A stretch of DNA of 64,000 bases from an uncultured Desulfobacterales bacterium (GCA_964620365.1 CAZUIH010000001.1:20279-84278), one strand, 5' to 3'; positions 10,119 through 53,776 are shown, numbered from the stretch's first letter. Numbers and translations: made by a program. The notes: generated by a model not told the origin, from the sequence alone.

Positions 10119-10484
10119 CTATTTCCGGAGATGTCGTCTTACAGATTCTTTGAGTTCATCCAGATTGAACGACTTGACTATATAGTCATCCGATGCCCAG
10201 GAAGCCAAATCCTGCTTATATTCCGGATAGGCGGAACTCAAAATAACCGGCACATCTGGCTTTTTCTGCTTCATTTGGCGTAAGACCTCTATACCATCCA
10301 TACCAGGCATATTTATGTCCAGTATTACAAGATCTGGTCCTAAGGCATCAAAAATCTTTAATGCCTCCTCACCGCTCAGGGCCGAATGCACCTCATATCC
10401 CTCTTCCTCCAGTTCTTCTCTGTAGAGCAAATGGATGCTCTCCTCGTCGTCCACCACTAAAATTTTCTTTGAATAGTCTCCCAT
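10119..10484 (-). CDS. Single-domain CheY-like response regulator
   Basis: KILVVDDEE, ILDINMPGMDG and a conserved K (IVKSF). 121 aa. Confidence 0.9.
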   Translation of the reverse strand: MGDYSKKILVVDDEESIHLLYREELEEEGYEVHSALSGEEALKIFDALGPDLVILDINMPGMDGIEVLRQMKQKKPDVPVILSSAYPEYKQDLASWASDDYIVKSFNLDELKESVRRHLRK

Positions 10485-30954: not shown

Positions 30955-31464
30955 ATGGATGAGATGCAATCTTTTCAGCAAACCAAGGGATTACAGACAG
31001 TAATCTTTCATATAAATAACCGTCCTTTTTGCATTGAACTTTCGTTTATTAGGGAGGTTGTCACCCTTTCTGGGCTGAAAAGCATTCCAAATGCCACACC
31101 CCATGTGGCAGGAGTGATTAATATCAGAGGAGAAGTAATTCCAGTTTTTAACATTGAGTCTATACTCCTTGGTCCATCTAACCAGGCAGCTTCGACCATT
31201 CCCTATAAGCAGAAAATACTTTTGATAAATTTTGGGACAACAAACGCCGGACTAATAGTTCACTCGGTATCCCGAGTGGCTTCACTTTCGTTGGACGGAA
31301 ATGATGATGAAAAAGCCTCGAAACAGGGGTATCAAAATCAATTCCTTAAAACTGTACTTAAAAGTGATGATGAAGAACTGATTCCTCTGGTTGATATTCC
31401 CAAGCTAATGGCCAGGTTAGAAAGAATCAATAGCTCGATACAGGCAACTGCCCAAAAGTATTAG
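30955..31464 (+). CDS. cheW: Chemotaxis coupling protein CheW
   Basis: CheW-like domain (FCIELSFIREVVTLSGLKSIPNATPHVAGVINIRGEVIPVFNI; AGLIVHSVSRV). 169 aa. Confidence 0.9.
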   Translation: MDEMQSFQQTKGLQTVIFHINNRPFCIELSFIREVVTLSGLKSIPNATPHVAGVINIRGEVIPVFNIESILLGPSNQAASTIPYKQKILLINFGTTNAGLIVHSVSRVASLSLDGNDDEKASKQGYQNQFLKTVLKSDDEELIPLVDIPKLMARLERINSSIQATAQKY

Positions 31465-31479
31465 GACAGGAGGATATAT

Positions 31480-33858
31480 ATGAAAAGCGGAGCAGGAGGC
31501 ATACGAAATTGGCGGCTCAGAACCAAGGTCTTGGCCATGGTTGTCATAGTGCTTTTAATTGCGCTGTCAGCCCAGGTCTATATCTATTTCCAGCAGCAGA
31601 GATTGCTCCAAAAGGAGGGGATATTATTACTTGAGGCCCAAGCCTCTGCACTCGCGGACAAAATGTCCTTGATGTTGAAAGACAGGACGAATGAACTGGA
31701 ATGGTTAGGAAACATAGAATCAGTCAGGAATGTCGTTACAACAGGAGAAAGCCAACAGAATGTAAACAAAATTCTCTCTCAACTTGTCAGAAAAACAGGA
31801 ATTTACCAATCTGTAATAATTACTGACCGTCATGGGCGTATAGCCGCTGGCAGTGACGCAAGGCTGGTGGGTAACAAAATCAAAAATGATGTCTGGTTTC
31901 AACCAGCCAGACTTGTTGAGACATATATCTATGGCCCTTTGTCATCCCCCGCTTCAACAGATAAAAGTGTCTTAAGCTTTGCCATAATTTCTCCCATCAG
32001 AAAAAATGAGGCCACAATAGGTACGGCCATCGGTTTTATACCGTTGGAGGATCTTAAGGGGCTATTGACCACGGCAAAAAAATTTGTGACAAAGATGGGA
32101 GGCGAGACCTACTTCACAGATAAATCAGGCAAGATCATTTTGCATTCTGACAACAATAGAGTTGGCGCGACCTCCATTATAAAAGGACAGTTGGACATTG
32201 CTTCTCCTGTGCAGGGAGTGATTTCTTTCAATAATCCAAGGGATGGTAAATCCACATTTGCAGCTTTACAAACAGTGCCAACTTCCGGACAGATAAATAG
32301 TTCCCAGTGGATTGCAGTGGTCCAGGGACCTAAGGCAGCTCTTTCTTCAGCACTTATTCCTTTACTCAGGCACCAGCTAGGGGCCAATGCCATTGTGTTT
32401 ATTTTCCTGCTGGCACTTGCTTACTTCTTGAATCGGGACGTTGTAAAACCAATTTCGGAAGCTGCCACTCTCCTGGGCAGGACGGCCAGAAACCTTGATC
32501 TGACGGAAAGATTGACAATAAGAAGCAATGATGAAGTAGGCCAGATGTCAGAAGCAGTTAACAAGTTCCTCAATACACTCCAGGACACCTTCAATGATGC
32601 TGTAAATGCCACATCCAGCTTTGCAAAATCTAGCCGGGACATCCATAGCGTAGCTCAAAAAATCGTGGAAAATGCCTCTGCTCAGGCCGAGAGGGCCCGC
32701 AATGTCGTACAACGTATATCGGTCATGGGCCAGACTGCCGCGGAGGTAGCCGCTCACGCTGAATCTTCAGCAAAACTGGCACGGGAAGCCGCCGATGTCA
32801 TAGCGGATATGTCCAACACCAGCGACAAGATCAATGAAATTTCCCAGCAGAACAAAGAAAGAGCGGAAGGGGCGGCTCAAACCGTAGTTGATATGGGTGT
32901 AACAGCCAAAGAGGTCCAATCAAGAGCTGTAGCCCAGTCGGAGGCTGCCAGCAAGACAGCGGAATCACTCCACAAAATGGCTGAACAATTGCAGGATATG
33001 GCCTCTAAGGCCCAGAATGCAGCAAAACAGGCACAACGGGCCATGGAAGATGCCCAGACGGGAAGCAAGGCCATGGCCATGACAGTTCAGGGTATGGAAG
33101 CCATTGCCCAAAGCTCGGATCAGGTAAAAGATATTGTAGACCTGATATCTGATATTGCAGAACAGACCAACCTCCTGGCTCTAAATGCGGCAATTGAGGC
33201 GGCGAGGGCAGGTGATCATGGAAGAGGTTTTGCAGTAGTTGCGGAAGAAATCAGAAAGCTTGCAGAAAGGACCAGTGAATCCACAAAAGAGATCGAAGCC
33301 CTTATTAAAGAGAGTACTGAAAACGTCCAAGAGGGAATGAAGCTCACCAAGCAGACCGCGGCTGCATTTGAAAACATAGTCGACACCATCGAAACCAGTG
33401 GTAAGGTTACCATTAATATTGCTGAGGTATCCTCCAAACAGGCTAAAGATACCCAGGGTCTTGTTTCTACAACTGATGAACTGAAAAATCTGGCCGGGAA
33501 TATCGTGGAGATGACAAATCAACAGGCAATTCGCCGTCAAAGGGCTGAAGAAGCAATCAAGCAGCTCATGAAACTCAGTGAAGAGATTACATCCGCTGCG
33601 AATTCAACCAGCCTTACCACCAAAACAGCCTCCGAGACGGTAGCTCATGTCGTTGAAAACTCTACGGAAATTACAAGCCGAACATCCAAGCAAAGAGAAC
33701 GGAGTGCCGCCCTTCAGGCACTCATGAACGAGATGGCAGAAGTAGCAGTACAAAACGCCCAAGGGGCCCAAGGGGCGCTGGCAGCCATGGAAGATCTTAT
33801 GGCAAAGGCCCATGAACTTGAACAAGAAATTAAAAGATTCAAGGTTTCAGCCATATAG
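31480..33858 (+). CDS. Methyl-accepting chemotaxis protein (Cache-like periplasmic sensor, HAMP, long signalling domain)
   Basis: Two TMs flank a sensor region of about 260 aa. Signalling hairpin tip [38 protein letters not shown]. No C-terminal NWETF-type pentapeptide. GGAGG RBS. Confidence 0.95.
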
Positions 33859-33977: not shown

Positions 33978-34011
33978 AAAAAAGGCGAGGCTATATGCCT
34001 CGCCCTTTTTT
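33978..34011. terminator. Bidirectional rho-independent terminator between mcp (+) and the ATPase gene (-)
   Basis: AAAAAA-GGCGAGGC-TATAT-GCCTCGCC-C-TTTTTT. A perfect 8-bp GC-rich stem has an A-run on one side and a T-run on the other, so it fits both strands. Confidence 0.7.
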
Positions 34012-34020
34012 AATCCTTGA

Positions 34021-36357
34021 TTATCTGACACAGGCAGCCCTTACCTGTTTTAGATCCGTGTCTCCCTGCAAGATCTTATGAATACCATCCTGTTTCAGTG
34101 TGAGCATCCCGGCTCCCATGGCATGCTTTTGTATCTCACTAACAGGACTCCTCTTTTGAATAAGATCTCTCATTGCATCATCACAGACCAACAATTCATG
34201 AATTGCAAGACGGCCCTTATAGCCTGTCCTATTGCAAAATTCGCATCCATTAGGCTTATACAAGGTCAGATTATTGTAAGCGTCAAGATCAAGGGGAATT
34301 GAGGGATGTGCACCATACTCGTAAAGAAGTAATTTTTTCTCCTCTTCATCAGGACTATACGCAACCTTACACTTGGGACACAGACGTTTTACAAGGCGTT
34401 GGGCCAAAACACCCAAAAGGGCATCGGCAAAATTAAACGGATCTATTCCCATGCCAAGCAGACGGGTTACTGTCTCTGGCGCAGAGTTCGTATGAAGTGT
34501 AGAAAACACAAGATGTCCAGTTAAAGATGCCTCTATGACTGTATGAGCCGTTTCTTCGTCTCTGGTTTCTCCAACCATTATTATATCAGGGTCCGCTCTC
34601 AAAAAGGCCCTCAACACCCTGGCAAAAGTCAGGCCTATGGAAGGCTTAACCTGTACCTGTCTCAATCCATCCTGGACTATTTCCACTGGATCTTCCGCTG
34701 TCCAAATCTTTTTTTCAGGCCTATTTATGTACCCCAAAGCAGCATGAAGAGTAGTGGTCTTTCCAGAACCTGTAGGTCCTACTACGAAGATAAGCCCATA
34801 AGGCATTTCTATAAGCTTTTTTAATCTTTCCAGATTGCGTTCCGACAGTCCTATCTTGTCCAAGGGCATTGCATCGGTCGCAGCAAGAATCCTGAGGACT
34901 ATATCTTCATTCCCCTCCGTTGTTGGCAGTGTTGCAACTCGAAGTTCTATAGTCCTTCCTCTCCTGGTTTTGAACTTTATCTTACCATCTTGAGGAAGCC
35001 GTTTCTCAGCAATATCCAGGTTTGCCATAATCTTGATCCTGGATATCAAGGCCCGTTTATAATTATACGGAATAGTCTGATACCGCATACAATCCCCATC
35101 AATTCTGAAACGGACCAGCGCGCCCCGCTTACCGGTCAAGGACTCAATATGAATATCCGACGCCTGACGTACGTACGCGTCTTCAATTATCTTGTTCGCC
35201 AGCTGTACTACTACACTGTCGACATCCGAGGTAAGGTCTTCTTCCTCGTCAACCTCTTCCTCCTCCTCAACCAACTCCAGCTGCTCGAAAACATCTACGT
35301 CGGACTCTCCAAGGGAATATTTTCCAAAAAAATAATCAATGAATTTATCAATATCTTCTTTTAGGGATACAACAAAATGGAACTCTCCAGCCTTTAATAC
35401 TCGACGGATGTTATCGATCTTGATAAGATCATGGGGATTATCCACGGCGACATGGAGGACATCGCCTTCTTCTTTTACCGGAACACATGTATTTGTCCTA
35501 AAAAAATGTTCTTTTATGCCATGTATGCAGGAAGGGGTTGAGCCTACCTCTAATTCATTAAACTCAACAAATGGACAGCGATAATATTCACTGAGAGACC
35601 TGCCCAGTGCCATTTTTTCCACGCCAAACTTTGAAAGCAAAATACTTTCTATAGATTTTCTGCTCTGCTTGGCTATTTCACGGGCTTGTTCCAGTTCTTC
35701 TTCTGTAATATGGCCTTCAATGATCAGATTATAAAATCTTCCATACTTTTGAGCCGTCTTGGTAAGATCATCGAGTCTTTGAGCAGCATTTCTAAACCCT
35801 CTGTCAATTTTTATAATCTGCTCCAGTGCCTCGATTGCTCGTGGAACAGCACCTGTCTTTTCGTGGGCGATCGCAAGCTGATAAAATATATTCAGCCGCA
35901 CCTCCTGGGAAACATTCGGATCTTTCAGGGCCTCTTCAAAGGCCTCTACTGCCTCAAAGGGCATATCAAGCCTAAGATAACACTCCCCAATCTTTGCATT
36001 GACTTCACCGACCCTGAAGCCTTTATCCAACAAAACCTTAAACTCATCTATGGCCTCAGAATGGAACCCGGCCTCCATGAGGCCAAGACAATTATTAAAT
36101 CTCTTTTCATTGGATTCTTCCTCTGACTCTTCGGCTGTCTGTGCCCCCAAGCCGATCTGCCTATCTACGCCCTCGATGCGTTTAAGGTTCTCTTCGATTT
36201 TGGCCTTTAATGGATGATCCTTTCCATTCAAATAGGCCAAAATCTCCTTGTATATTTGACAGGCCTCTTCATTTAATCCCTGATTAACATAAAGCTCCGC
36301 TTCTTGGAACTTGGCGTCTAGAGATATTTCGGAAACAACCTGCAGGTCAGACATCAT
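34021..36357 (-). CDS. PilB/GspE/MshE-family secretion-type ATPase with N-terminal TPR extension
   Basis: N-terminal TPR-like helices of about 220 aa. Then a T2SSE_N-like region (FYNLIIEGHITEEELEQAREIAKQ...). Then Walker A VGPTGSGKTTTL, Asp box/Walker B (ADPDIIMVGETRDEETA), His box (TGHLVFSTLHTN) and a tetracysteine CPKC...CEFC. Confidence 0.9.
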   Translation of the reverse strand: MMSDLQVVSEISLDAKFQEAELYVNQGLNEEACQIYKEILAYLNGKDHPLKAKIEENLKRIEGVDRQIGLGAQTAEESEEESNEKRFNNCLGLMEAGFHSEAIDEFKVLLDKGFRVGEVNAKIGECYLRLDMPFEAVEAFEEALKDPNVSQEVRLNIFYQLAIAHEKTGAVPRAIEALEQIIKIDRGFRNAAQRLDDLTKTAQKYGRFYNLIIEGHITEEELEQAREIAKQSRKSIESILLSKFGVEKMALGRSLSEYYRCPFVEFNELEVGSTPSCIHGIKEHFFRTNTCVPVKEEGDVLHVAVDNPHDLIKIDNIRRVLKAGEFHFVVSLKEDIDKFIDYFFGKYSLGESDVDVFEQLELVEEEEEVDEEEDLTSDVDSVVVQLANKIIEDAYVRQASDIHIESLTGKRGALVRFRIDGDCMRYQTIPYNYKRALISRIKIMANLDIAEKRLPQDGKIKFKTRRGRTIELRVATLPTTEGNEDIVLRILAATDAMPLDKIGLSERNLERLKKLIEMPYGLIFVVGPTGSGKTTTLHAALGYINRPEKKIWTAEDPVEIVQDGLRQVQVKPSIGLTFARVLRAFLRADPDIIMVGETRDEETAHTVIEASLTGHLVFSTLHTNSAPETVTRLLGMGIDPFNFADALLGVLAQRLVKRLCPKCKVAYSPDEEEKKLLLYEYGAHPSIPLDLDAYNNLTLYKPNGCEFCNRTGYKGRLAIHELLVCDDAMRDLIQKRSPVSEIQKHAMGAGMLTLKQDGIHKILQGDTDLKQVRAACVR

Positions 36358-37982
36358 CCATTACCTGTCAAACTCTCCAGAGTAGCCACCGGAATGGCTC
36401 CATTGCTACCCTTCAAAAACCCTTTCCATACATCCGAGTCTTTCCCAGGTTCCCAAGACCAATCATCAGGAATGGATACGGTCCTTGGCTGTTCATCCAC
36501 AAAAAGCACACATCCGCGATCTCCTGAATAAAGTACCAACATTGTAGACTCAGAGTTATTTTCATTAAAGATTGATGAGGGTTCAGGACTCGAAATTACT
36601 GGCAGTTCAAGCCCTTTCAATTCTTCTTCTGTAAGACCAGACAACTCTCCAACAAATAAGGGTCTTAATTTTGACCATGGCCATTTCTTTAATTTTTTCA
36701 AAGGGAACGTCGACTTTCCTTTAAACTCACTAAGATTCAACCTAGTGGTACCGATAAATCCTATCTCCTCAGGCAAAAAACCAACTTCCCTGCCCTCCCA
36801 TCGGGCCAACGCAAGCTCTTTCCAGGGACTTTTCTGTTCAGTCTTTTCCGGAATATCTCCTTCCGCCTCAAAAAATCTGGTATACACCGGTGGAGTAAAT
36901 GACTTCCCCCCCAAAACATCTAACAAGACCCCTTTTTGCTCCTCCAGTCTAGTCCTCAGGCCGACATGAAATCGATACAGTTTTTCCAGTCCCCTGGTCT
37001 TTTTCAAAAGCGATTCCACTGGCCGGAGATTTTCAATACAATCATCAAGAACCGCTACATGAAAATTCACCGCAGAAATAAGGGACTCTGCGATCTTCTC
37101 TCCAGGCCCTGATTGTTCCGTTTTCGCATCTTCCTCGAAAGGTGTGTCGCTGACAGCCTCAACCACTTCTTTAGGTTCCACGATCCCTTGTGAAGAGACC
37201 TCCTCCAACTCAACAGAAGCGGGCTCAACATCCTTTACTTCGTCAGGTTGCAGTTCAAGCTCCATGTCCAGATATTCAGAAGCCAAACTTTCCTGCTGAT
37301 CTCCTGCTTCCTCTTCGGATAGATAAGAAGCGGTTTTTTCTAACTGCTGAAGGCCCTCTAATTCCACAATCGCATCTTCGAGAGATTGTTTCTTGCCAAT
37401 CAACACCCCATTTTCACCGCTCTGAAGACCTATTACTGCCTCTACAACCTTCTGCAAAACCTTTGGCGCAGTGGTAGGGACGGATTCCGGATCTTCGGCC
37501 AGTTTAGACAAGGTCTTCCTCATCAGACTCAATACCTTGTCTCCATCAACCCCTTCTATCAGCTTGAATTCAGACGCGACTCCTTCCAAGAGGTCCTTTG
37601 CAGCATGTATATTGTCCCTGTTGACCTCCCATTCTAGGGTTAAAAGCGCCTGGTAGAGCTGATTAAATCTATGGATTCTATTTTCCTCTGTTTCGTTTAC
37701 CTGCTTAACCTCTTCTTCATCAAAATCCAGATCCAAGTCCAGTTCGAGGTCTCCACCAGGAGATACATCTGGCTTTGGAGTAGTCTCTGACGTATCCTGA
37801 TCCCCTTCACCAAAATCCAGGCCTAAGGGTGCCTCCACTTCTTCAGTTTGAGACAGTTCCTTTATTTCATTTGTCAAGGGATCAATCTCAATCTGTTTTG
37901 CAGGAGCAAACAAATCTTCTATTGTATCTTCAATCTCTTTTGTAAACTGTTCAGGATCAGGCTGGTTGTTGGTCTGCTCCAT
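36354..37982 (-). CDS. Hypothetical highly acidic protein; the C-terminal roughly 170 aa may be a divergent CheW-like domain
   Basis: 542-aa ORF with a good RBS (AAGGAGAG). Translationally coupled to the downstream ATPase gene by a 4-nt overlap. The N-terminal two-thirds is D/E-rich and low complexity. The C-terminus (ELALARWEGREVGFLPEEIGFI...MLVLYSGDRGCVLFVDEQPRTVSIP...WKGFLKGSNGAIPVATLESL) recalls the CheW/P5 pattern. No confident family assignment. Confidence 0.7.
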   Translation of the reverse strand: MEQTNNQPDPEQFTKEIEDTIEDLFAPAKQIEIDPLTNEIKELSQTEEVEAPLGLDFGEGDQDTSETTPKPDVSPGGDLELDLDLDFDEEEVKQVNETEENRIHRFNQLYQALLTLEWEVNRDNIHAAKDLLEGVASEFKLIEGVDGDKVLSLMRKTLSKLAEDPESVPTTAPKVLQKVVEAVIGLQSGENGVLIGKKQSLEDAIVELEGLQQLEKTASYLSEEEAGDQQESLASEYLDMELELQPDEVKDVEPASVELEEVSSQGIVEPKEVVEAVSDTPFEEDAKTEQSGPGEKIAESLISAVNFHVAVLDDCIENLRPVESLLKKTRGLEKLYRFHVGLRTRLEEQKGVLLDVLGGKSFTPPVYTRFFEAEGDIPEKTEQKSPWKELALARWEGREVGFLPEEIGFIGTTRLNLSEFKGKSTFPLKKLKKWPWSKLRPLFVGELSGLTEEELKGLELPVISSPEPSSIFNENNSESTMLVLYSGDRGCVLFVDEQPRTVSIPDDWSWEPGKDSDVWKGFLKGSNGAIPVATLESLTGNG

Positions 37983-38040: not shown

Positions 38041-38673
38041 CTACATGCTTCCTGCCTTTCGACTCGGCATCAAATGCTTCGATGCCACGTGTCTGACAGT
38101 CCTCTTGCTTATCTCCTTTAAGGTCTCAAAAACGCCAATTCCCTTGATTGCTGCTGCTCCAAAGGCCTTGGTCCTGAGTTCTTTGTTAAGATCAGCCTCC
38201 AACTCTTCTATGGTAAGGGTTGGAATGGAGGTCTGGACCAAATCTCGTTTATTATATTGCAGGACAATTGGTATTTCGTGTAGCGAGATATTGTAATCCA
38301 AGAGATTACGCCTAAGATCTTCCAGACTCTCAATATTTTTGGCCTGCCTTACCTTCAACGAATCCGCTACGAATACTAGACCATCCACCCCTTTTAAAAC
38401 CAACTTTCTGGTTGCTTCATAAATCGCCTGTCCTGGTACCGTGTATAACTGAATCCTTATGTCAAATCCGCTGACTTTTCCCAGACTTAATGGAAGAAGA
38501 TCAAAAAAAAGGGTACGGTCTCCCTTTGTTTCTATAGTGAGCATCTTGCCCCGGGCGGCATTGCCCATGGCATTATATATGTAGAGAAGGTTAGTTGTCT
38601 TTCCACATCTACCTGGACCATAGTAGACGATCTTACAGTGAATTTCCTTTTTACTCAGATCAATTAGGGCCAT
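38041..38673 (-). CDS. mglA: Ras-like small GTPase MglA
   Basis: Near-colinear with Myxococcus MglA from memory: KIVYYGPGRCGKTTNL, DRTLFFDLLPLSLG, LYTVPGQ (Thr replaces the G3 Asp, an MglA hallmark), LKGVDGLVFVADS and QYNKRDL. Confidence 0.93.
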   Translation of the reverse strand: MALIDLSKKEIHCKIVYYGPGRCGKTTNLLYIYNAMGNAARGKMLTIETKGDRTLFFDLLPLSLGKVSGFDIRIQLYTVPGQAIYEATRKLVLKGVDGLVFVADSLKVRQAKNIESLEDLRRNLLDYNISLHEIPIVLQYNKRDLVQTSIPTLTIEELEADLNKELRTKAFGAAAIKGIGVFETLKEISKRTVRHVASKHLMPSRKAGSM

Positions 38674-38675
38674 AT

Positions 38676-39077
38676 CTACGCTTCTATGCCAAAGGTTTCC
38701 GCTATTGTCTTCGCCAGTTGGGCCACTCGCAGTCTTACAAGCCCAAGAGATACATCATCGCCAAAAATGGTTACGAGTATAAAATGCTCTCCAATCCTGG
38801 AAAAATGAATGCTGTCCTTCTTTCCTTTATGAAACAGGAGAGAAAAATCATCTTCTCCTATGAGTCTTGCTATCTGAGATGTAGCTCCAAAATTTGCTGC
38901 TGCCAATGCTGCCAATGAGGTGGCATCCACCCTGCCTTGGTCTTTGCCACAATTTGCCACTATGTTGCCAGCCTCATCAATCAAGAGCACCATATGAACT
39001 CCTGCACTTATCAGGATCTCCTCAATCTGATTCTTAGTCTTTTCAAGCACTGAGGCACTTAGCACTAAATCCGCCAT
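38676..39077 (-). CDS. mglB: Roadblock/LC7-domain protein MglB (MglA GAP)
   Basis: Roadblock fold sequence resembling MglB (VLLIDEAGNIV, TSLAALAAANFGA, LIGEDDF, SLGLVRLRV). Lies 2 nt upstream of mglA. AAGGAG RBS. Confidence 0.9.
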   Translation of the reverse strand: MADLVLSASVLEKTKNQIEEILISAGVHMVLLIDEAGNIVANCGKDQGRVDATSLAALAAANFGATSQIARLIGEDDFSLLFHKGKKDSIHFSRIGEHFILVTIFGDDVSLGLVRLRVAQLAKTIAETFGIEA

Positions 39078-39378: not shown

Positions 39379-40227
39379 ATGCCTGTTTCAATCGCCCAGC
39401 GACTTGACAACATAGAAGACCTTCCCACGATTCCTCACACTCTGCATCAGGTATTAACCAGTCTTGACAAGGTTTCATCCTCGGCTCAAACCCTTGAAGC
39501 TATAATAAGGGAAGATCCAGTACTTACAGCCAAGATACTCAAGATGGCCAATTCTCCCTATTATGGACTGCCAGGGGAGATATCCAGCATTGCCAGGGCG
39601 GTAGTAATCCTTGGCTTTGAAGAGGTAAAAAATTTGGTCATAGGTCTGTCACTTACTGGCGCCTTCACAGGAAACCTGGGTATAAAGGAATTTGACTCAA
39701 AAGGCATCTGGTTACACTCGGTAGCCGTTGCCATAACATCAAAGATTCTTGCTGACTCAGTCTCGGAAGTTGACCCAGATGAACTTTTTACCGCCGGACT
39801 TATCCACGACATCGGCCGCCTACTAATGTGCCTCTACTTCCCCAAGGAGCTTAGAGAGATACTGGATCTCCAACAGAGAGAAAACATACCTCTTGCAGTA
39901 GCTGAAGAGCGTTACGGTCTTACACATGGTGAAATCGGGGCATATCTTACCCAAAAATGGCAGCTCAGTGACATGCTGGTCAATGTGGTAAGGTATCATC
40001 ATCATCCCCAGGGTGCAGGCCCCTATATAAAGGCCGCCTCAATAATATTTCTTGCAGATGAAATATGCCACAAATTGAAAATAGGTTGGAGCTTCGATTA
40101 CGGGGAAAAAAAGATTCTGGTACCCAAGTCCTTGGGACTTAACGCAGAAACCATAAAAAAAGTAGCGCAGCGAATCAAAAAGGAAAAAGAAAAAATCGAA
40201 GCCGGCTGGCTAGAAATGATAAAATAG
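39379..40227 (+). CDS. HDOD domain protein
   Basis: HDOD-like sequence (LPTIPHTLHQVL, DPVLTAKILKMANSPYYG, AVVILGFEEVKNL, GLIHDIGRLL, HGEIGAYL). Confidence 0.9.
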   Translation: MPVSIAQRLDNIEDLPTIPHTLHQVLTSLDKVSSSAQTLEAIIREDPVLTAKILKMANSPYYGLPGEISSIARAVVILGFEEVKNLVIGLSLTGAFTGNLGIKEFDSKGIWLHSVAVAITSKILADSVSEVDPDELFTAGLIHDIGRLLMCLYFPKELREILDLQQRENIPLAVAEERYGLTHGEIGAYLTQKWQLSDMLVNVVRYHHHPQGAGPYIKAASIIFLADEICHKLKIGWSFDYGEKKILVPKSLGLNAETIKKVAQRIKKEKEKIEAGWLEMIK

Positions 40228-40235
40228 AATCCCCA

Positions 40236-41312
40236 ATGGAGGTAAAAGGGGTGAAATCTCAAGGACGACGCATCAAAACCCTTGTAGTAGATGATACCGC
40301 TTTCATGAGGAAGGCCCTGGTAGATATCCTTTCAATGGATGAGGAAGTCGAAGTTGTGGGTGTGGCGAGGCATGGAAAGGAAGCTCTTCAGGCCATTGAA
40401 ATACTAAAGCCTGACGTAGTAACCTTGGATGTGGACATGCCTGTAATGGATGGACTGACTGCTATAAAACATATTATGATCCGCAGCCCTCGACCAGTCA
40501 TAATGGTAAGCGGACTGGCAGGCCAGGGAACCGTAACCCTGGAGGCCTTAAGACTCGGTGCAATAGACTTTTTTCCCAAACCATCTGGAACCATTTCCCT
40601 TGATATTCACGAACAGGCCGATGAACTGAATAACATTGTTAAGCAGGCCGCCCAGATTAATCCTTGGGCCTTACAAAGGGCTAGACTGCCCTTGGCCAAC
40701 AAGCAGCCCAGGCATACCTCAGACAATCCTATGGGAATCTTGATGATAGGGGCTCACAGGGGTACATGCACAAGCCTTATACGACTACTAGGGAACATCA
40801 ATCCCCAGTTACCATTAACAATAATCGCCGTCCAGGACATCTCCTGCCAGGTCCTAGACTCGTATGCCCAGGAACTTAACAAGGTGATTCCATGGCATGT
40901 CTCCGTCAACAGGCACAAAAGCAAACTGTATCCAGGCCACTGTATTTTAGCTAGCTATGGGCAACCATGGTCCATCAGGAAAAACTCATCAGGCCACCTA
41001 GAGCTAATCGCGGAGAAACAAGGTTCTCTTGATGATCTATTCGCCCAAACGGCTTTAATATTGGGAAATCGCTCACTGGGTGTCATCCTCGGCGGGACCT
41101 CCCGGGAAGGAATCAAAGGTCTCAAGACATTAAGGGAAAAGGGGGGGACATCACTTGTCCTTGCTCCTCAGGCGTGCATTTACAAGGATGCAGCAGAGAC
41201 GGCCCTTAGGGAACAGGCAGCTAAAGCTGTTGCCTCGGAAAAGGAACTCTGGTCTAGAATTGAGGCCTTTGGCCGACAGCTTGTACTGAAGGCCGCGTGC
41301 AATCAAGCATAA
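40236..41312 (+). CDS. Response-regulator receiver fused to a CheB-methylesterase-like domain with a degenerate catalytic triad
   Basis: REC looks intact (VVDDTAF, TLDVDMPVMDG, FFPKP). At the CheB triad positions (Ser164/His190/Asp286 of enteric CheB) I read IGAHRGT, AVQDIS and GGTSREG by eye, so Ser, His and Asp are all replaced. Confidence 0.85.
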   Translation: MEVKGVKSQGRRIKTLVVDDTAFMRKALVDILSMDEEVEVVGVARHGKEALQAIEILKPDVVTLDVDMPVMDGLTAIKHIMIRSPRPVIMVSGLAGQGTVTLEALRLGAIDFFPKPSGTISLDIHEQADELNNIVKQAAQINPWALQRARLPLANKQPRHTSDNPMGILMIGAHRGTCTSLIRLLGNINPQLPLTIIAVQDISCQVLDSYAQELNKVIPWHVSVNRHKSKLYPGHCILASYGQPWSIRKNSSGHLELIAEKQGSLDDLFAQTALILGNRSLGVILGGTSREGIKGLKTLREKGGTSLVLAPQACIYKDAAETALREQAAKAVASEKELWSRIEAFGRQLVLKAACNQA

Positions 41313-41482
41313 CCAGGCCTCTAAAGAGGCTGTCTTTTCTAAAACAAACAGGAGACAAAAAACGATTCTCAGTGGAGTTACACAAACATACTTCACAGAC
41401 GGACAAAGCAACTAAGGCAGAAGACATAGTATTTCAGGAGTGCATTATTTCTAATCACAACATAGATCTTGGGAGAAGATTA

Positions 41483-42580
41483 ATGGGGAACGGCGTCCAA
41501 CCTTCGCTGAAACAAGAGCAACAAGAAACAGTGAAAGTTTTTATCATCGACGATTCTCAGTTGATGTGTAAGGTATTGGAAAAAGTCTTGGCAGAAGATC
41601 CGGGAATAGAAATTGCCGGCCATGCATTGAATGGGCAGGAGGCCTTGCGAAACCTCAGGTCTATGCGGTGTGATGTGTGCACTTTGGATGTTCATATGCC
41701 AGGCATGAATGGTCTAAGCGTGCTAAAACACATAATGATTCAGTGTCCATTGCCTACACTTATGGTTAGCGCCTTTACCGCAGACGGTTCCAGGGTGACA
41801 TTCGAGGCACTTAGATATGGCGCAGTCGATTTTTTCCAGAAGCCTGCAAGGGACAAAGGAGAAGACATTCAATCCCAGGCGGAAATGTTACGGGCCAAGG
41901 TAAAAAGGGCGGCCAGGGTGCAGGTTGGTGCGGCCAGATACCTTCGCCTGCGTCCTGTCGCGTCATCCACCACAAAAACAGCGAACAGAACCGAATCTGC
42001 CACCATTTCAAATATTACAATAATAACTGCGTCCACAGGAGGCTATTCCAGTCTCTTGTCTCTTCTCCCGATGATGCAATATCCGCCAAAGGCACCTGTT
42101 ATTGTATCCCTTGGAACAGCGACTCAATTCATGGATCCATTCATAGACTATCTTAGCTCTTTTGTGTCCTTTCCTGTCATACGGGCAAAAAACGGTATGC
42201 AATTGAAAAATGGAACGGTTTTTTTTATAAGCGGTAATGAGTCGGCAACTCTTGAAAAAAACGGAGATAAAATCGAGCTTATCATATCTCCTCGCCCAGA
42301 CATGTTTGATCTTGAAGGAGGGGTTGACCTGCTCATGTTTTCAGCCAGTGAACTTTTTGGAGAGGACACGGTTGGCATATTTCTTTCTGGAGACAGGCCA
42401 GAAGGACTGTCTGGTGCCAGGGAAATTGTGCGAAACAAGGGCAAAATAATTGTACAAAGGCCTGAAACATGTTTGTCCCCTGACCAACCACTCCGCATCT
42501 TTACAGAGGTTGGAGCAGAATCGCTGGGCCTGTCCGAACTAGCCCAGAACCTTTCTTCTAGTGAAAGGTCACAATCTTGA
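41483..42580 (+). CDS. Response-regulator receiver fused to a CheB-like domain (Ser motif kept, His and Asp positions not conserved)
   Basis: REC looks intact (IIDDSQL, TLDVHMPGMNG, FFQKP). The CheB-like domain has TASTGG but VSLGTATQF where QHMP is expected, and SGDRPEG where GMGxDG is expected. I chose the ATG at 41483, preceded by GGGAGAAG. The ORF track extends to a GTG at 41297. Confidence 0.8.
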   Translation: MGNGVQPSLKQEQQETVKVFIIDDSQLMCKVLEKVLAEDPGIEIAGHALNGQEALRNLRSMRCDVCTLDVHMPGMNGLSVLKHIMIQCPLPTLMVSAFTADGSRVTFEALRYGAVDFFQKPARDKGEDIQSQAEMLRAKVKRAARVQVGAARYLRLRPVASSTTKTANRTESATISNITIITASTGGYSSLLSLLPMMQYPPKAPVIVSLGTATQFMDPFIDYLSSFVSFPVIRAKNGMQLKNGTVFFISGNESATLEKNGDKIELIISPRPDMFDLEGGVDLLMFSASELFGEDTVGIFLSGDRPEGLSGAREIVRNKGKIIVQRPETCLSPDQPLRIFTEVGAESLGLSELAQNLSSSERSQS

Positions 42581-42611
42581 CTGAAGATAAAACAGCTTAC
42601 CAGTCTCTCAA

Positions 42612-44036
42612 ATGAACTCTATAGACCATCCACAACATCCATTTTCCAGTGAAACGCCACCTAAGGACTTTAACGGTTTCATGGAAGAAATAGCCCTCGG
42701 AGACCTGGTCCAGCTGGCCTGTCTTGAAGGCAGTGATCGTGTACTCAAGGTTTCAGGGGAAACCGTAGAAGGAGAAATATACTTTTCCAACGGTGAAATT
42801 GTTCATGCGGTATCCTCTCGAAACGAAGGTGAAAAAGCCTTTTTTGAAATTATGAGGATGAGCAGAGGCACCTTTTTCTTTTCCAAAGGGCGACCTCCCA
42901 AAACAACTATAAGCGTACCCTGGAATTTCCTTCTTATTGAGGCCTCACGTCAAATAGATGAAGGCGACGAAAAGAATGAAAAAGGACTTGAAAAAAAACC
43001 TACTGTTCTGATCGTGGATGATTCTAGGGTGGCGTGCAAGTCTCTGCGGGAGTGCATAAAGGAAAAATTCAACATAGAAAACATACTGGAGGCCTCCAAC
43101 GGACGACAAGCAATTGATGCCATGGAGAAAGAAAAACCAGGCCTTGTCACCCTTGACATGAACATGCCGATAATGGCAGGCGACGTAACCCTTAAGCACA
43201 TAATGATACGCTCGCCAGCACCGGTGGTGCTAATAAGCGGCATTGACCCCCAAAATTTCCCCAGGATCATGGACTTTTTGCGTCTTGGCGCTGTGGATTT
43301 TATCCCCAAGCCTCTTGGAGACATGGAGTGGGATAACGGTGCTGAACGACTGGGTAGACATATTGAAAAAGCAAGTAGTCTGATGGTCCAAAATATACGC
43401 AGGGCCAAGCTGGCCAAACCGGTTGATTCTAAAATTACTCCATCAGGCCATGCCAAAAGAATTGCCATCTTTGTAGGAGGAGCTGGAGGGCTTCTTGAAC
43501 TCCAAAAAATTGTACCGGCCCTTTCACCTGATGAACATCTGTGTATTGTCATATTTCAGGACATGGCGGATGAAATAGTATCTCCTGTATCTCAATATCT
43601 AGATAAATTCTTTTCAGGTAATGTGTCTCCTCTTAGAGACGAAGCAGAACTTTTATCCGGACTCTGCCTGATTTCCAACTGGGGAAAGAACTGGGACATA
43701 AGAGGGGATAAACCTGGCAGACTTTCGCTATACCCTGCCGAAGACCATGGACTTGATCTTGAACAGTTTCTGGGTTCCGTTGCCAAAAACTTTGGTCCCA
43801 GCAGCGCGCTTTTTGTCCTTAGTGGCGCAGATCTGGAGCTGGAGAAGGGAGTAGAGAAAATGTCAGCCATGGGAGGTCGAATACTTCTTCAAGATCCTGA
43901 AACGTGTCTGGACCCAAATCCTGTTTTGAGATTACAGAGAATCGAAATGGAAGATGGGACCTTTGAGCCTGAAAAAATTATCGAGTCATTCAATGCCTGG
44001 CTCGAAGCTACCGATACGATATTAGCAGATTCATGA
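42612..44036 (+). CDS. PATAN/DUF4388 domain + receiver + degenerate CheB-like domain protein
   Basis: N-terminal LGDLVQLACLEGSDRVLKVSGETVEGEIYFSNGEIVHAV...GEKAFFEIMRMSRGTFFF fits the DUF4388/PATAN pattern. REC looks intact (IVDDSRV, TLDMNMPIMAG, FIPKP). The CheB-like C-terminus has VGGAGG (no Ser) and IFQDM (His to Asp). Confidence 0.8.
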   Translation: MNSIDHPQHPFSSETPPKDFNGFMEEIALGDLVQLACLEGSDRVLKVSGETVEGEIYFSNGEIVHAVSSRNEGEKAFFEIMRMSRGTFFFSKGRPPKTTISVPWNFLLIEASRQIDEGDEKNEKGLEKKPTVLIVDDSRVACKSLRECIKEKFNIENILEASNGRQAIDAMEKEKPGLVTLDMNMPIMAGDVTLKHIMIRSPAPVVLISGIDPQNFPRIMDFLRLGAVDFIPKPLGDMEWDNGAERLGRHIEKASSLMVQNIRRAKLAKPVDSKITPSGHAKRIAIFVGGAGGLLELQKIVPALSPDEHLCIVIFQDMADEIVSPVSQYLDKFFSGNVSPLRDEAELLSGLCLISNWGKNWDIRGDKPGRLSLYPAEDHGLDLEQFLGSVAKNFGPSSALFVLSGADLELEKGVEKMSAMGGRILLQDPETCLDPNPVLRLQRIEMEDGTFEPEKIIESFNAWLEATDTILADS

Positions 44037-44079: not shown

Positions 44080-44424
44080 GTGGCAAGAGTTCTTATAGTC
44101 GATGATTCCAGCTTTATGAGAAAGCGCATTGCCCAGGCCCTTATAGAGAATGGCCATGAGGTCATTGGACAGGCAAAAGACGGGCTAGAGGGATTCACGG
44201 TTTATAAAGAAACCAAACCAGATGTTGTTGTAATGGACATCACTATGCGGGGCACAGACGGTATCTCAGGGGCGCAGCTTATTCGGGATTACGATCCCGA
44301 TGCAAGGATCATATTCATGAGTCTGATTGCAGATCCTGATGTAATTGCCAAAGCCAAGGCCCTTGGGGCAGAAGGTTTCCTAGGCAAAAAGGACTATGAT
44401 AGACTTTTGGCACTATTAAAATGA
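44080..44424 (+). CDS. cheY: Chemotaxis response regulator CheY
   Basis: VLIVDDSSFMR, VVMDITMRGTDG and a conserved K (LGKKD). 114 aa with a GTG start and a GGAGA RBS. Confidence 0.9.
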   Translation: MARVLIVDDSSFMRKRIAQALIENGHEVIGQAKDGLEGFTVYKETKPDVVVMDITMRGTDGISGAQLIRDYDPDARIIFMSLIADPDVIAKAKALGAEGFLGKKDYDRLLALLK

Positions 44425-44525: not shown

Positions 44526-47252
44526 GTGGGTTGTATCATGAGTCAGATAGATAAAGAGATGTGGCAGGATTTTGTGGTCGAAGCCAACGAGAACCTTGAG
44601 GAGCTCGAACCCAATCTTTTGTTATTGGAAAATGATCCCAAGAACATTTCACTTCTCAACGATTGTTTCAGGAATATGCACTCCATTAAGGGCGCTGCAG
44701 GCTACATGGGGCTTGAAGCTATATCGAGTCTGGCACATAGCGTTGAAAACCTCTTTGACAAGGTAAGACAGGGAGAGCTCTCGCTTTCTCCAGAAGACAT
44801 CAACCTGATTTTTGCAGCTATCGACAGGATAAGAGCCCTAATAAAAGAGGTATCTGAATCGAATCAGGAAAAATCCCAGGTAGAGGATCTTCTTAAAAAA
44901 ATTGATGATCTCATCTCCACAAGATCAGGCAACTTATCGGAGGGGGCGAATACTTCCGTTCAACCATCCAGGATTCAGGCTCAGTCAGACACCGATGGGG
45001 GGGAAACCGGTATTCAGAATCAGGACGAAGATCTAGAACTCATGGAGATTTTTGCTGAAGAAATAAAGAGTTTGTATCAACAGCTCCAACAGTTGACCCA
45101 CGCCCATCCAATTGCCAAGGACGCCCTGCTCACCGTGCTGAATAACATTGAAAGGGTAACAAACTATATAGGGTTGGATGAACTTCTTGAAGAGATTGTT
45201 TCCATAAAAGGACGTATCGATAAAGAAGAGGACAATACCCTTGACGCCGATAAGGTTCGGGAACTCATCAAAGAAACAGGAAAAGTGCTGGAACGCCATA
45301 TACCTTCATTCAGCATGATGGAAGAAAATCAGGACCGTGGCGAATTAGGCCTTGAAGAAGATGAAGAGCTTTACAAAATTTTCCTGGACTTCGTAAAAGA
45401 AAATTCCGGCCCTCTGGCCAACACCCCCACCACCCCTGATGAAACATGGCTTAAGGAATGTCAGGAATCAGTTGAAAAGCTAAAGACATCTGCCCATTAC
45501 ATGGATTATCCAGACATCGTGGCCCTTTTTGAGGAATGGGGAGAAAGGCTGGCAGAATCTCTGTCAAAATATCACGAAGAAAAAAAATTCGATCCAGGGC
45601 CCTTCAAGGAGCTTTGGACAAGACTTGTGGAACGTCTACCTGAACTTGGCTCAATTGAGCCTACGCCCCTTAAAGAAGACCTGATAGAAGAAGAATTCGA
45701 AGCCATAGGAGAAGAACCAATAGTTGAAAATCTTGAATCCGCTATAGACCAACTGTTTGACAACCAGGACCTGTTCGGCGAAGGAACCGATCCAGATAAC
45801 CTTCCCTTCCCAACCGAAATCGACACTGCTTTGGAACAGGCAGAATCTGTTCAGTCAACACAGCATGAAAACACGGCCGCTGCCCCATCAGCCTCAGAGC
45901 AGATAGCTGATTCAGAACCTCAAGAACAGTTAGAAAAACCCTCCGCCCCCCCATCACAAACAGTCCGCATAGATCTCGACCGGGTCGAGCACCTGTTAAG
46001 AGACGTTGGAGAACTTGTCGTACTGCGCTCTGGCCTCACCCAGGCGGCGGAAGAGATGAAGGCCACCTATAAGGAATGGATGGAAAAGAGGCTTCTGGAT
46101 ACCAAGCATCTCAAGAGATTCAAGGATGCCATGATCCGTTTGAACGAACAGGCAGCAGCCCTTGGGAGAGTTGTACACAACTTACAGGATGGCGTCATGA
46201 GAATGAGGATGCTGCCTGTTAGAAACCTCTTCAATCGTTATCCCAGGATGATCCGTGATCTTTGTCAGAAACTCGACAAAAAAGTCAATTTAAATGTCAT
46301 CGGTGCGGAAACTGCCCTTGATAAACGGGTCATTGAAGAAATGGCGGATCCTATGCTCCATATTATCAGAAATGCCATTGATCATGGTATAGAACCCCCT
46401 GATACCAGAGAAAAACTAGGCAAACCGGCAACCGGCACGCTTACTCTTTCAGCAAGCCAAGAGGGCAACTACGTTGTAATCAAGGTAAAGGATGATGGAA
46501 AAGGGCTGGACAGGGAAGGCATCATCAGACGTGCGGTAAGTCTCGGGCTCATTGGAAGGGAAGAGGCCCAGACACTTCCCGATGAAAAAGTATGGGAATT
46601 GATATTCCTGCCAGGCATAACCACTGCGGAAAGTGTCTCCGAGACCTCCGGTCGAGGAGTGGGCATGGATGTGGTCAAAAGGAACGTTGAAAAGCTGGGG
46701 GGCGTAATGAAAATCCGCTCGGTTCCCGGCAGAGAGACCGAAATAACAGTCCGAATCCCGCTGACCCTGGCTATCATCCCGACTCTTCTTACCCGTGTTG
46801 GACATCAGGTGATGGCTATTCCAATTTCCGCTGTCCAGGAGACATTCAGGATACGGTCTGATGAAATCAGTACTGTAGAAGGTTTTGAGATTATATCCCT
46901 GAGACAGGATACTCTTCCACTAATAAGATTAAGCCGTATTTTCCGGGGAACAGGTGCTGATGAGAACCCGGAAAAACTTTTTGTAGTGAGGATCAAACAG
47001 GGTGAAGTGGAAGCCGGCCTTGCTGTTGATGGATTTATTGGGCAGCAGGAGGTGGTTATCAAGCCTCTTGCTGAATATCTTACGGATCAACCTGGATTTT
47101 CCGGCGCTACTATCCTGGGAGACGGTTCTATCGCCCTAATTTTGGATATCCCTGTGATGCTGGACAAAGCAAAAAAATTCACAGTGAAGAGACAACAGCT
47201 ATTGGAAAAATCAGCCCTTGAGTTTGAAGAAATAAGCAACACGATCCATTGA
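44526..47252 (+). CDS. cheA: Chemotaxis histidine kinase CheA with an extended multi-Hpt-like N-terminal region
   Basis: Hpt (FRNMHSIKGAAGYMGL), a long acidic linker with two further Hpt-like helical segments, a dimerisation domain, HATPase_c (HIIRNAIDHGIE, DDGKGLD, SGRGVGMDVV) and a C-terminal CheW-like P5. An alternative ATG start lies at 44538. Confidence 0.95.
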   Translation: MGCIMSQIDKEMWQDFVVEANENLEELEPNLLLLENDPKNISLLNDCFRNMHSIKGAAGYMGLEAISSLAHSVENLFDKVRQGELSLSPEDINLIFAAIDRIRALIKEVSESNQEKSQVEDLLKKIDDLISTRSGNLSEGANTSVQPSRIQAQSDTDGGETGIQNQDEDLELMEIFAEEIKSLYQQLQQLTHAHPIAKDALLTVLNNIERVTNYIGLDELLEEIVSIKGRIDKEEDNTLDADKVRELIKETGKVLERHIPSFSMMEENQDRGELGLEEDEELYKIFLDFVKENSGPLANTPTTPDETWLKECQESVEKLKTSAHYMDYPDIVALFEEWGERLAESLSKYHEEKKFDPGPFKELWTRLVERLPELGSIEPTPLKEDLIEEEFEAIGEEPIVENLESAIDQLFDNQDLFGEGTDPDNLPFPTEIDTALEQAESVQSTQHENTAAAPSASEQIADSEPQEQLEKPSAPPSQTVRIDLDRVEHLLRDVGELVVLRSGLTQAAEEMKATYKEWMEKRLLDTKHLKRFKDAMIRLNEQAAALGRVVHNLQDGVMRMRMLPVRNLFNRYPRMIRDLCQKLDKKVNLNVIGAETALDKRVIEEMADPMLHIIRNAIDHGIEPPDTREKLGKPATGTLTLSASQEGNYVVIKVKDDGKGLDREGIIRRAVSLGLIGREEAQTLPDEKVWELIFLPGITTAESVSETSGRGVGMDVVKRNVEKLGGVMKIRSVPGRETEITVRIPLTLAIIPTLLTRVGHQVMAIPISAVQETFRIRSDEISTVEGFEIISLRQDTLPLIRLSRIFRGTGADENPEKLFVVRIKQGEVEAGLAVDGFIGQQEVVIKPLAEYLTDQPGFSGATILGDGSIALILDIPVMLDKAKKFTVKRQQLLEKSALEFEEISNTIH

Positions 47253-51922: not shown

Positions 51923-52831
51923 TGACAAGTTCCTGTACATAAGATCTATAAAACTCTTTCCTTCTGAAATTTCCTCTTTTGAAAGATTGGCCCCTGTGCT
52001 GATAACAGCTATGGAAGCCCCTGTTTCCAAGGCCAGCGTCTGGGCGATCCGATCACTGACACTCCTTTCAAAAAAAATAGTGTTTATGTTGTTCTCCCTT
52101 ATGATACTTATTAAATGAGCCATTTTTTGGGCTGTCGGTCTGGAATCAGGACTGATTCCGTAAAGGGATATCTGGGTCAACCCGTAAGCCCTTGCCAAAT
52201 ACCCAAAGGCGCTGTGCCCTCCAACTATAAAAATTTTTGTTCTGCAGTGGGAAAAGGTCCTCTTGTAGGCATCATCCAGTTCTTCCAGCTCACGAATGTA
52301 TTTCTCCCCGGCCTTTTTAAAAATGGGGCCCTTCTCAGGCTCAAGCTTGGATAAGGCCTCTACTATACGTTGAACAACAGTTTTGTCCCAGGAAAAATCA
52401 AGCCATACATGCGGATCGACATCGCTATACCCGTGGTGATGATGGGCATGATAATGCTTTTCTTGAGATGGCAAATGATCAGTATGCATAAGATGTGCGC
52501 CTGCGCAGGCCTCTATCAAAACTTTGTTTTTGTTGTCCAGAACCCCCATTACATCTGACGCCCAGGGTTCGAGTTCCTTTCCCACCATCAATATGATGTC
52601 AACTTTTTCAAGTAATGCAATGTCACTGGGCTTGGGCTCCCATGAGTGGGGGGTGGCCCCGGGAGGCAGCAGAAGAGTTACATCGACTTCATCGCCTCCC
52701 ACATTCCTTGCCATGTCAGCCAGAGGAAAGATAGTAGCTGCAACCCTTATTTTTGCACCTGCACTCACGGGTTGTATGAATAAGACGAGACAGCTGGATA
52801 AAAAGTAGATAAAAAAGAGAAATCGTTTCAT
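51866..52831 (-). CDS. Metal (Zn/Mn) ABC-transporter substrate-binding protein, ZnuA/TroA family, with His-rich loop
   Basis: Signal peptide, ATIFPLADM, HSWEP, a His-rich insert HYHAHHHHGYSDVDPHVWLD, and FIVGGHSAFGYLA. Confidence 0.9.
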   Translation of the reverse strand: MKRFLFFIYFLSSCLVLFIQPVSAGAKIRVAATIFPLADMARNVGGDEVDVTLLLPPGATPHSWEPKPSDIALLEKVDIILMVGKELEPWASDVMGVLDNKNKVLIEACAGAHLMHTDHLPSQEKHYHAHHHHGYSDVDPHVWLDFSWDKTVVQRIVEALSKLEPEKGPIFKKAGEKYIRELEELDDAYKRTFSHCRTKIFIVGGHSAFGYLARAYGLTQISLYGISPDSRPTAQKMAHLISIIRENNINTIFFERSVSDRIAQTLALETGASIAVISTGANLSKEEISEGKSFIDLMYRNLSLLGDGLGCTVQAQNPPKD

Positions 52832-53772: not shown

Positions 53773-53776
53773 TTGC

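Follow-up and report, generated by a model that had tools for sequence, protein, structure and literature searches.

Closest among described systems to the genes discussed here is CheB, a chemotaxis enzyme whose receiver domain (REC) covers the active-site face until it is phosphorylated. The same architecture, REC followed by the Pfam domain CheB_methylest (PF01339), is shared by the CheBs of Escherichia coli/Salmonella (PDB entries 1A2O and 1CHD), Pectobacterium atrosepticum (6YMZ) and Thermotoga maritima (3SFT) and by the products of three consecutive genes in a 64,000-nucleotide stretch of DNA from an uncultured Desulfobacterales bacterium (GCA_964620365.1, CAZUIH010000001.1:20279-84278), referred to below as the window. 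As is usual for CheB, these three genes (P1, P2 and P3, for pseudo-CheB 1 to 3) are found near genes for CheA, CheY, CheW and a methyl-accepting chemotaxis protein (MCP). Unlike CheB, they encode replaced catalytic triads (H/D/E, S/G/E and G/D/E instead of Ser/His/Asp), score below curated CheB cut-offs and have no CheR in the locus; there are three diverged copies, one of them fused to a PATAN domain. The reading that we prefer, with a probability of roughly 55%, is that the trio represents ancient CheB paralogues whose methylesterase domain no longer catalyzes a reaction and serves instead as a binding module gated by phosphorylation, connecting a Che pathway to a polarity or motor system.

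Three other described systems are relevant for comparison. Known phosphate sinks (Sinorhizobium CheY1, Rhodobacter CheB2/CheY6) involve several receivers competing for one CheA, and the same would apply here; however, those sinks are single-domain CheYs or active CheBs, whereas the trio conserves a large non-catalytic domain. The Frz pathway of Myxococcus xanthus has an active CheR/CheB pair (FrzF/FrzG) and CheY-type outputs (FrzZ, FrzX and RomR). In M. xanthus, as in this locus, a Che-type pathway is connected to an MglA-like GTPase and to a Roadblock protein of the MglB type. The che and mgl genes are unlinked in M. xanthus but clustered here, where the CheB homologues appear to be catalytically dead. 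The MglA/MglB module of M. xanthus controls the polar sorting of pilus ATPases, and mglA/mglB genes recur beside PATAN genes (PMC4316618).

In the third system, the PatA-type regulators of cyanobacterial Tax/Pix pathways (PixG, PixE, PilG and TaxP), PATAN precedes REC, as it does in P3. The P3 gene also accompanies one for a CheA-type kinase and has a PilB-family ATPase gene close by. For PatA-type regulators of Synechocystis, PATAN is the output domain and binds the N-terminal part of PilB1 as well as PilC (bioRxiv 10.1101/2021.06.11.447907). Compared with the regulators described in that work, P3 has a third domain, the dead CheB fold. The host is a member of the Desulfobacterota rather than a cyanobacterium, and the candidate partner ATPase has an N-terminal TPR region.

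The three genes lie on the plus strand: P1 at 40236-41312 (358 amino acids), P2 at 41483-42580 (365 amino acids from the ATG at 41483) and P3 at 42612-44036 (474 amino acids). The original prediction, made from the sequence without database searches, had described them as consecutive REC-CheB-like genes, and the open reading frames (ORFs) and Pfam domains agree. All domain matches exceed the Pfam gathering cut-offs (24 bits for PF01339), with REC and CheB_methylest scores of 74 and 82 bits in P1, 72 and 86.5 bits in P2, and 65 and 57 bits in P3. The more stringent NCBI curated CheB model NF001965, with a cut-off of 293 bits, gives only 214.7 (P1), 223.5 (P2) and 130.3 bits (P3). Pfam also reveals a domain that the original prediction had missed: residues 22-117 of P3 match DUF4388/PATAN (PF14332, 65 bits) immediately N-terminal to REC, which is the PatA-type layout, and the domain is present in all of the approximately 120 P3-family homologues listed. 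The receivers are as intact as had been claimed, since the acidic DD pair, the phospho-acceptor Asp, the Ser and the Lys are found in all three proteins.

An alternative ORF for P2 begins at a GTG at 41297 (41297-42580, 427 amino acids), and the P2 residue numbers given below count from that start. The ATG at 41483 is most likely the real start, because it is preceded by the ribosome-binding site GGGAGA, coincides with the start in the public gene call and gives a protein as long as the orthologues. This choice leaves 170 bp between the P1 stop and P2 (41313-41482), compared with about 10 bp in orthologous loci, and places outside the gene a small GC hairpin and the T-rich run behind it (41316-41331), found directly 3' of the P1 stop. 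The hairpin could be an internal attenuator or merely part of a lineage-specific spacer.

The catalytic residues were mapped in three independent ways: pairwise phmmer alignment with the CheB chains of 1A2O and 6YMZ (Salmonella numbering Ser164/His190/Asp286), a MAFFT alignment of 180 sequences including 1A2O, and hhalign comparison of profiles of the orthologue families with one built from 16 canonical CheBs whose triads are intact (probability 100%). All three place the same residues at the three positions. In P1 these are H174/D201/E291, in the motifs GAHRGT, VQDIS and GGTSREG; in P2, S246/G273/E369, in TASTGG, VSLGTA and SGDRPEG; and in P3, G290/D317/E409, in VGGAGG, FQDMA and SGADLEL. As a control, the equivalents of Ser164, His190 and Asp286 are invariant in 16/16 of the canonical CheBs aligned. 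The motifs originally picked out by eye are therefore the correct ones, and the third P3 motif, previously called ambiguous, can now be identified as SGADLEL, in which Glu takes the place of the Asp. Neither profile alignment, which had been proposed as a check, nor profile-profile alignment puts Ser/His/Asp at these positions, and the claim that none of the proteins keeps the catalytic His is upheld by every method. A relocated general base is unlikely, because the family alignments contain no conserved C-domain His in the P1, P2 or P3 orthologue family.

The substitutions are conserved in orthologues, each paralogue family having its own pattern. Across 123 P1-, 85 P2- and 121 P3-family sequences, the phospho-acceptor Asp and the Lys of REC never vary, and the DD pair hardly does; Ser92 and Ser209 of REC are also invariant (alignments A2 and A1, respectively). 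At the Ser position the P1 family is hypervariable, with 13 different residues, and at the His position it has Asp or Glu in 95/123. The P2 family keeps the Ser in 69/85 members, replaces His by Gly in 60/85, and has a conserved ‘SGD’ three residues before the former catalytic Asp. In the P3 family, Ser is replaced by Gly in 121/121, and the His position is occupied by Asp, Asn, Gln or Glu. Outside the triad, members of the P2 family have in common a set of invariant polar residues that canonical CheB lacks (Y250, R333, E340, D344, S364-G365-D366, E376, R379, Q387 and C392). This pattern suggests that the former catalytic domain has gained a conserved pocket or interface. Invariant polar residues of the P3-family C-domain are E296, Q298, K299 and Q427, and invariant residues are few in the C-domain of P1. 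Pairwise identity among the three C-domains is only 23-28%, so the duplications must be old. Recent tandem duplication was considered and ruled out by this low identity and by the separate orthologue family of each paralogue.

Selection was estimated as the ratio of nonsynonymous to synonymous substitution rates (dN/dS) with the Nei-Gojobori method, using five closer orthologue pairs among the fetched loci; the window's own genes are unsuitable, with nearest orthologues 55-59% identical and synonymous sites saturated. The CheB-like C-domains give values of 0.05-0.36, compared with 0.08-0.19 for CheA and 0.02-0.07 for the MglA-like GTPase from the same loci. There are no frameshifts, and the trio ORFs are full-length and intact in every genome examined.

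Structures of P1 and P3 were modeled with AlphaFold (AF2) from the family alignments, and whole models were compared with the PDB by template modeling (TM) scores. The P1 model (pLDDT 92, pTM 0.90) has TM 0.83-0.85 to 1A2O and TMt 0.87 to 3SFT. For the P3 model (pLDDT 88.6), which is longer owing to the PATAN domain, TM is 0.58/0.78 to 1A2O, and TMt is 0.78 to 1A2O/6YMZ and 0.80 to 3SFT. The best PDB matches of both models are full-length CheBs (1A2O and 6YMZ) and catalytic domains (3SFT and 1CHD), with TMt 0.76-0.88 overall and 0.76-0.87 for the isolated catalytic domains. Both models also reproduce the closed receiver/catalytic-domain packing of CheB, so that fold and packing are common to the models and to CheB (TM 0.78-0.85 for full-length structures, up to 0.87 for the catalytic domain). 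With the fold kept, the catalytic residues gone and the genes under purifying selection, P1, P2 and P3 match what is meant by a pseudoenzyme. The idea of phosphorylatable pseudoenzymes put forward in the original prediction is thus supported from four sides: the alignments, the fold models, the conserved substitutions and dN/dS.

Enzymes of receptor methylation were sought in the window and in related loci. A Pfam scan of the window, covering non-nested ORFs of at least 110 amino acids other than the one at 9-482 (minus strand), gives no match to the CheR, CheD, CheC/X or CheZ families, in agreement with the earlier statement that neither CheR nor CheD is encoded there. Neither was seen in the four loci inspected gene by gene (L001-L004), and a scan of ten unassigned ORFs from L039, L043 and L061 brought up neither. 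The MCP was said to be adjacent and to have no C-terminal pentapeptide tether. An xWxxF pentapeptide is indeed absent from its C-terminus, but the gene is not adjacent: 6 kb and a divergent operon of four genes separate it, on the upstream side, from the trio.

How widely the arrangement is conserved was examined in a survey with one genome per GTDB species, in which at least 590 stretches encode relatives of the PATAN-REC-CheB-like protein. The 80 loci that were kept all come from Desulfobacterota or from metagenome-assembled genomes without finer classification (‘delta/proteobacterial’). HDOD, P1, P2, P3, MglA and MglB genes occur together in 14/85 fetched loci, all from other Desulfobacterota genomes, and several more loci are cut by contig ends. 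The whole arrangement, with the ATPase, acidic protein, MglA and MglB genes on one strand and the HDOD, P1, P2, P3, CheY and CheA genes on the other, recurs in Dissulfurirhabdus thermomarina and many uncultured Desulfobacterota. Homologues of each paralogue are found on the same long contigs. A CheA gene is no more than 10 kb away from the gene for the PATAN-REC-CheB-like protein in 69/85 loci, and an MglA gene in 24/85. The trio is conserved across many sulfur-cycling deltaproteobacteria, beside genes for a polarity switch and a pilus-type motor ATPase. A full Ser/His/Asp set is present in only 1 of approximately 170 CheB-like ORFs in the 85 loci (L039, 4109-5398), and CheB regulators without the triad are widespread in Desulfobacterota, cable bacteria included.

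From this context, we infer that the locus encodes a methylation-independent Che pathway with CheY and three pseudo-CheB adaptors as outputs and with MglA/MglB and the PilB-like ATPase as targets. In the mechanism that we propose, the dCache chemoreceptor would control CheA, and CheA would phosphorylate CheY and the three pseudo-CheBs. Phosphorylation would then loosen the interface between REC and C-domain as in CheB, and the former active-site face, once exposed, would bind a partner rather than hydrolyze methyl-glutamate. Such exposure of a binding surface is suggested by the closed, CheB-like arrangement of the models and by the adjacent CheA. P3 would also use PATAN to reach the PilB-like ATPase, the MglA/MglB switch or both. 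That PATAN may bind the N-terminus of the PilB-like protein, or PilC, is an analogy that rests on the PilB-like neighbor and the Synechocystis precedent. P1 and P2 might provide non-enzymatic feedback on the receptor/CheA array or have further targets. The pathway as a whole would set the polarity or activity of a pilus- or secretion-type motor without methylation-based adaptation.

Several points weigh against this interpretation. Catalytic inactivity, phosphotransfer and the binding partners of P1-P3 are all matters that we infer. Genes for CheR and a genuine CheB may exist in other parts of the genome, and the search for a methylation-site consensus in the MCP, which gave no match, was a weak regular-expression test with no positive control. 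Room is left for P2 as a non-canonical hydrolase, given the Ser in its GxSxGG elbow and its invariant Asp344, Asp366, Arg379 and Tyr250. To speak of a pilus motor is a guess, as the ATPase is atypical, with its TPR N-terminus and its scores below the PilB and GspE cut-offs, and there are no genes for pilin, PilC or PilMNOPQ in the 64-kb window. In addition, a second conserved cluster, found in cable bacteria and Desulfobacterales and described below, has no PilB-like gene, so the link to this ATPase is lineage-specific.

The original prediction had offered three roles for the trio: phosphate sink, receptor-binding adaptor or output module. The context favors output or adaptor over pure sink, because P3 has a PATAN domain, the divergent operon encodes MglB, MglA and the PilB-like ATPase, and the C-domains are under selection and have family-specific polar residues. 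As pure sinks, the receivers would drain phosphoryl groups from CheA and shape the kinetics of phosphorylated CheY, with the C-domains inert. One CheA does face four receiver proteins in the operon, and the REC sites are invariant while few residues of the P1 C-domain are. Reverse phosphotransfer and sink roles of CheY/CheB paralogues are reportedly an established concept from modeling of Rhodobacter, which also counts in favor of this explanation. Nevertheless, we regard it as improbable. Purifying selection on the C-domains is comparable to that on CheA, and the P2 and P3 families each have their own invariant polar C-domain residues, many in number, which argues for a selected binding surface rather than a mere sink. 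The extra PATAN domain is kept throughout the P3 family, and a folded appendage of about 180 residues, retained in three paralogues across the phylum, would be unexpected when sinks elsewhere are single-domain CheYs.

Just as improbable, in our estimation, is non-enzymatic adaptation, in which the dead CheB domains would dock in a phosphorylation-dependent manner on the adaptation region or signaling tip of the receptor and tune CheA, as feedback of the CheV/CheD kind. It is compatible with part of the preferred reading, namely the feedback suggested for P1 and P2, and it would make use of the CheW-MCP pair in the locus. The conserved CheB fold, with its glycine-rich elbow and the ‘SG’ loop around the former pocket, and the closed arrangement in the models also fit. 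Against it, three feedback proteins for a single receptor seem too many, and the P3 PATAN domain and the tight linkage to MglA/MglB and the ATPase are left unexplained.

Retained enzymatic activity has still poorer prospects. P2 is its most plausible case, with a non-canonical set such as Ser246 plus Asp366/Asp344 acting on receptor methyl-esters, amides or some other substrate. Ser-Glu-Asp and Ser-Lys hydrolases exist in other folds, and related P1-like proteins of Desulfobacterales and cable bacteria read S/T-E-D at the triad positions. The GxSTGG elbow is the same one that retains its Ser in most of the P2 family, where the Asp, Arg and Tyr residues listed above are invariant. However, that Ser is replaced by G, T or A in 16/85, the nucleophile position is always Gly in the P3 family and hypervariable in the P1 family, and no family has a conserved His. 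No CheR was found in the loci examined, and no recognizable MCP methylation sites by the weak pattern search. Finally, decay of pseudogenes after loss of methylation-based adaptation would account for the lost catalytic residues and the lack of a nearby CheR, but it is already contradicted by intact full-length ORFs in all genomes examined, gene order conserved in at least 14, dN/dS well below 1, confident AF2 folds and invariant REC sites, and can be dismissed.

The genes around the trio form two divergent groups. The plus-strand row is operon-like and consists of HDOD, P1, P2, P3, CheY and CheA genes. It begins with the HDOD-domain protein (39379-40227; 201.6 bits; syntenic in 16 loci) and continues after P3 with a single-domain CheY-like response regulator (44080-44424; Response_reg, 79.9 bits; syntenic) and the CheA histidine kinase (44526-47252; syntenic). 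Pfam identifies Hpt, dimerization, HATPase and CheW domains in CheA, which scores below the cut-offs of the NCBIfam CheA models. Its acidic linker, between the Hpt and dimerization domains, has approximately 370 residues, with no P2 docking domain (the CheA domain of that name) detected. In Dissulfurirhabdus, a separate small Hpt-like gene (L003, 11907-12512) is found ahead of cheA.

Divergently upstream, on the minus strand, are genes for an MglB-like Roadblock/LC7 protein, an MglA-like GTPase, an acidic protein and the PilB-like ATPase. The Roadblock protein (38676-39077; Pfam Robl_LC7; syntenic), a putative GTPase-activating protein, matches the NCBIfam MglB model weakly, with 64 bits against a cut-off of 200. 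It adjoins a small Ras-superfamily GTPase (38041-38673; Pfam Arf/Ras; 76-84% identical in syntenic loci), and this is the layout of an MglA/MglB gene pair, the function being predicted. The acidic protein (36354-37982) has 541 amino acids, 79 of them Glu, belongs to no known family and has no Pfam match even at E<=1. In 14 loci its gene occupies the same place, between those for the MglA-like GTPase and the PilB-like ATPase. The protein is mostly 24-30% identical there and is probably a fast-evolving scaffold of the module. A CheW-like scaffold was considered and rejected, given a probability of 12% in hhalign comparison with a CheW profile and the lack of any Pfam match.

The PilB/GspE-like secretion ATPase (34021-36357) contains T2SSE (407 bits), MshEN and TPR domains and is syntenic in 11 loci at 63-71% identity. 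Its score with the PilB model TIGR02538 is 512 bits, below the cut-off of 676, and the GspE equivalog cut-off is likewise missed. The TPR region ahead of MshEN is unusual. The cyclic di-GMP-binding MshEN motif RLGxx(L/V/I)(L/V/I)xxG... has no match in this protein, even in a relaxed version. Beyond the ATPase are plus-strand genes for the CheW coupling protein (30955-31464; Pfam CheW, 85.5 bits) and the chemoreceptor (31480-33858; dCache-HAMP-MCPsignal by Pfam), and an orthologous MCP is found at the same position in L003 and L009.

Promoter and terminator scans of the 30.4-47.6 kb region gave counts at or below shuffle expectation and were not used to define operon structure; set apart from this null result are a hairpin after the MCP (33984-34004) and the small one after the P1 stop. 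Elsewhere in the window, a second HDOD gene (53777-54643, minus strand) is followed by one for a partial GGDEF protein (profile positions 5-89 of 161). The two span 52828-54643 and may be another degenerate signaling pair. A REC-GGDEF diguanylate cyclase (9107-10096, minus strand) adjoins a stand-alone CheY-like receiver (10119-10484, minus strand), adding to the two-component and cyclic di-GMP signaling encoded in this neighborhood.

The second conserved cluster is found in Desulfobulbales (including Ca. Electrothrix and Electronema) and Desulfobacterales, with L001, L019 and L023 as examples from cable bacteria and L039, L043 and L061 from Desulfobacterales. No CheR was seen among the genes of L001 or in the ORF scans of L039, L043 and L061. 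It contains MCP, CheW, CheY and CheA genes, one or two CheB-like regulators without the triad and often MglA/MglB nearby, together with a Zn-ribbon ParA-like ATPase, ABC transporter genes, PilZ, HAMP and TauE proteins and a PATAN-REC-CheB-like protein. The P1-like proteins with S/T-E-D at the triad positions are from this cluster, and its genes may be those that have been cited as ‘CheB’ in cable bacteria.

Two further groups of CheB-like proteins differ from the trio in their triad positions. In Desulfobacterales, a family with ORFs nearest to P2 is encoded upstream of MCP-CheW-CheY-CheA (L038, L042-L044, L047, L070, L082 and L084); it has the elbow G[AS][AS]EGG, with Glu for Ser; the His position is taken by Tyr or His, and the Asp of GxDG is retained. 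PATAN-REC-CheB-like proteins of Syntrophales/Desulfomonilaceae (L062, L066, L072, L074-L081, L083 and L085) keep the Ser, in GASTGG or SSTGG, and read xHDMQ, where the His comes one residue ahead of its canonical position. Judging from these motifs, the shifted His could be a relocated catalytic base, and some members could still be active.

In the public record, proteins of the kind described here are named ‘chemotaxis protein CheB’, ‘protein-glutamate methylesterase’ or ‘response regulator’. The freely searchable literature (subscription papers being outside the search) contains no description of CheB regulators without the triad, of PATAN-REC-CheB fusions or of this locus. The suggestion that a tandem pseudo-CheB trio is an undescribed architecture thus stands as far as that literature goes, but the trio is not a one-off, as it recurs in 14 other genomes. 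It is a family of CheB-derived pseudoenzyme regulators within a distinctive conserved locus, and is not categorically new. A broader proposal, that Desulfobacterota have reused the CheB fold as a phosphorylation-gated binding output and possess a hitherto undescribed class of methylation-free pathways, with several pseudo-CheB outputs including one fused to PATAN, that wire CheA directly to MglA/MglB and a PilB-like ATPase, is offered tentatively, with the odds somewhat against it.

For these Desulfobacterota, cable bacteria included, genome-based claims of methylation-dependent adaptation are probably wrong where they rely on these loci. What was once an enzyme of adaptation now seems to serve as a signaling adaptor, and a radiation of receiver-coupled dead CheBs would be a clear bacterial case of such a change. 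A Che pathway physically linked with MglA/MglB and a PilB-family ATPase would offer a compact system for the coupling of chemosensing to polarity outside Myxococcus and, if the broader proposal is true, the relatives in Electrothrix and Electronema could regulate the gliding of cable bacteria.

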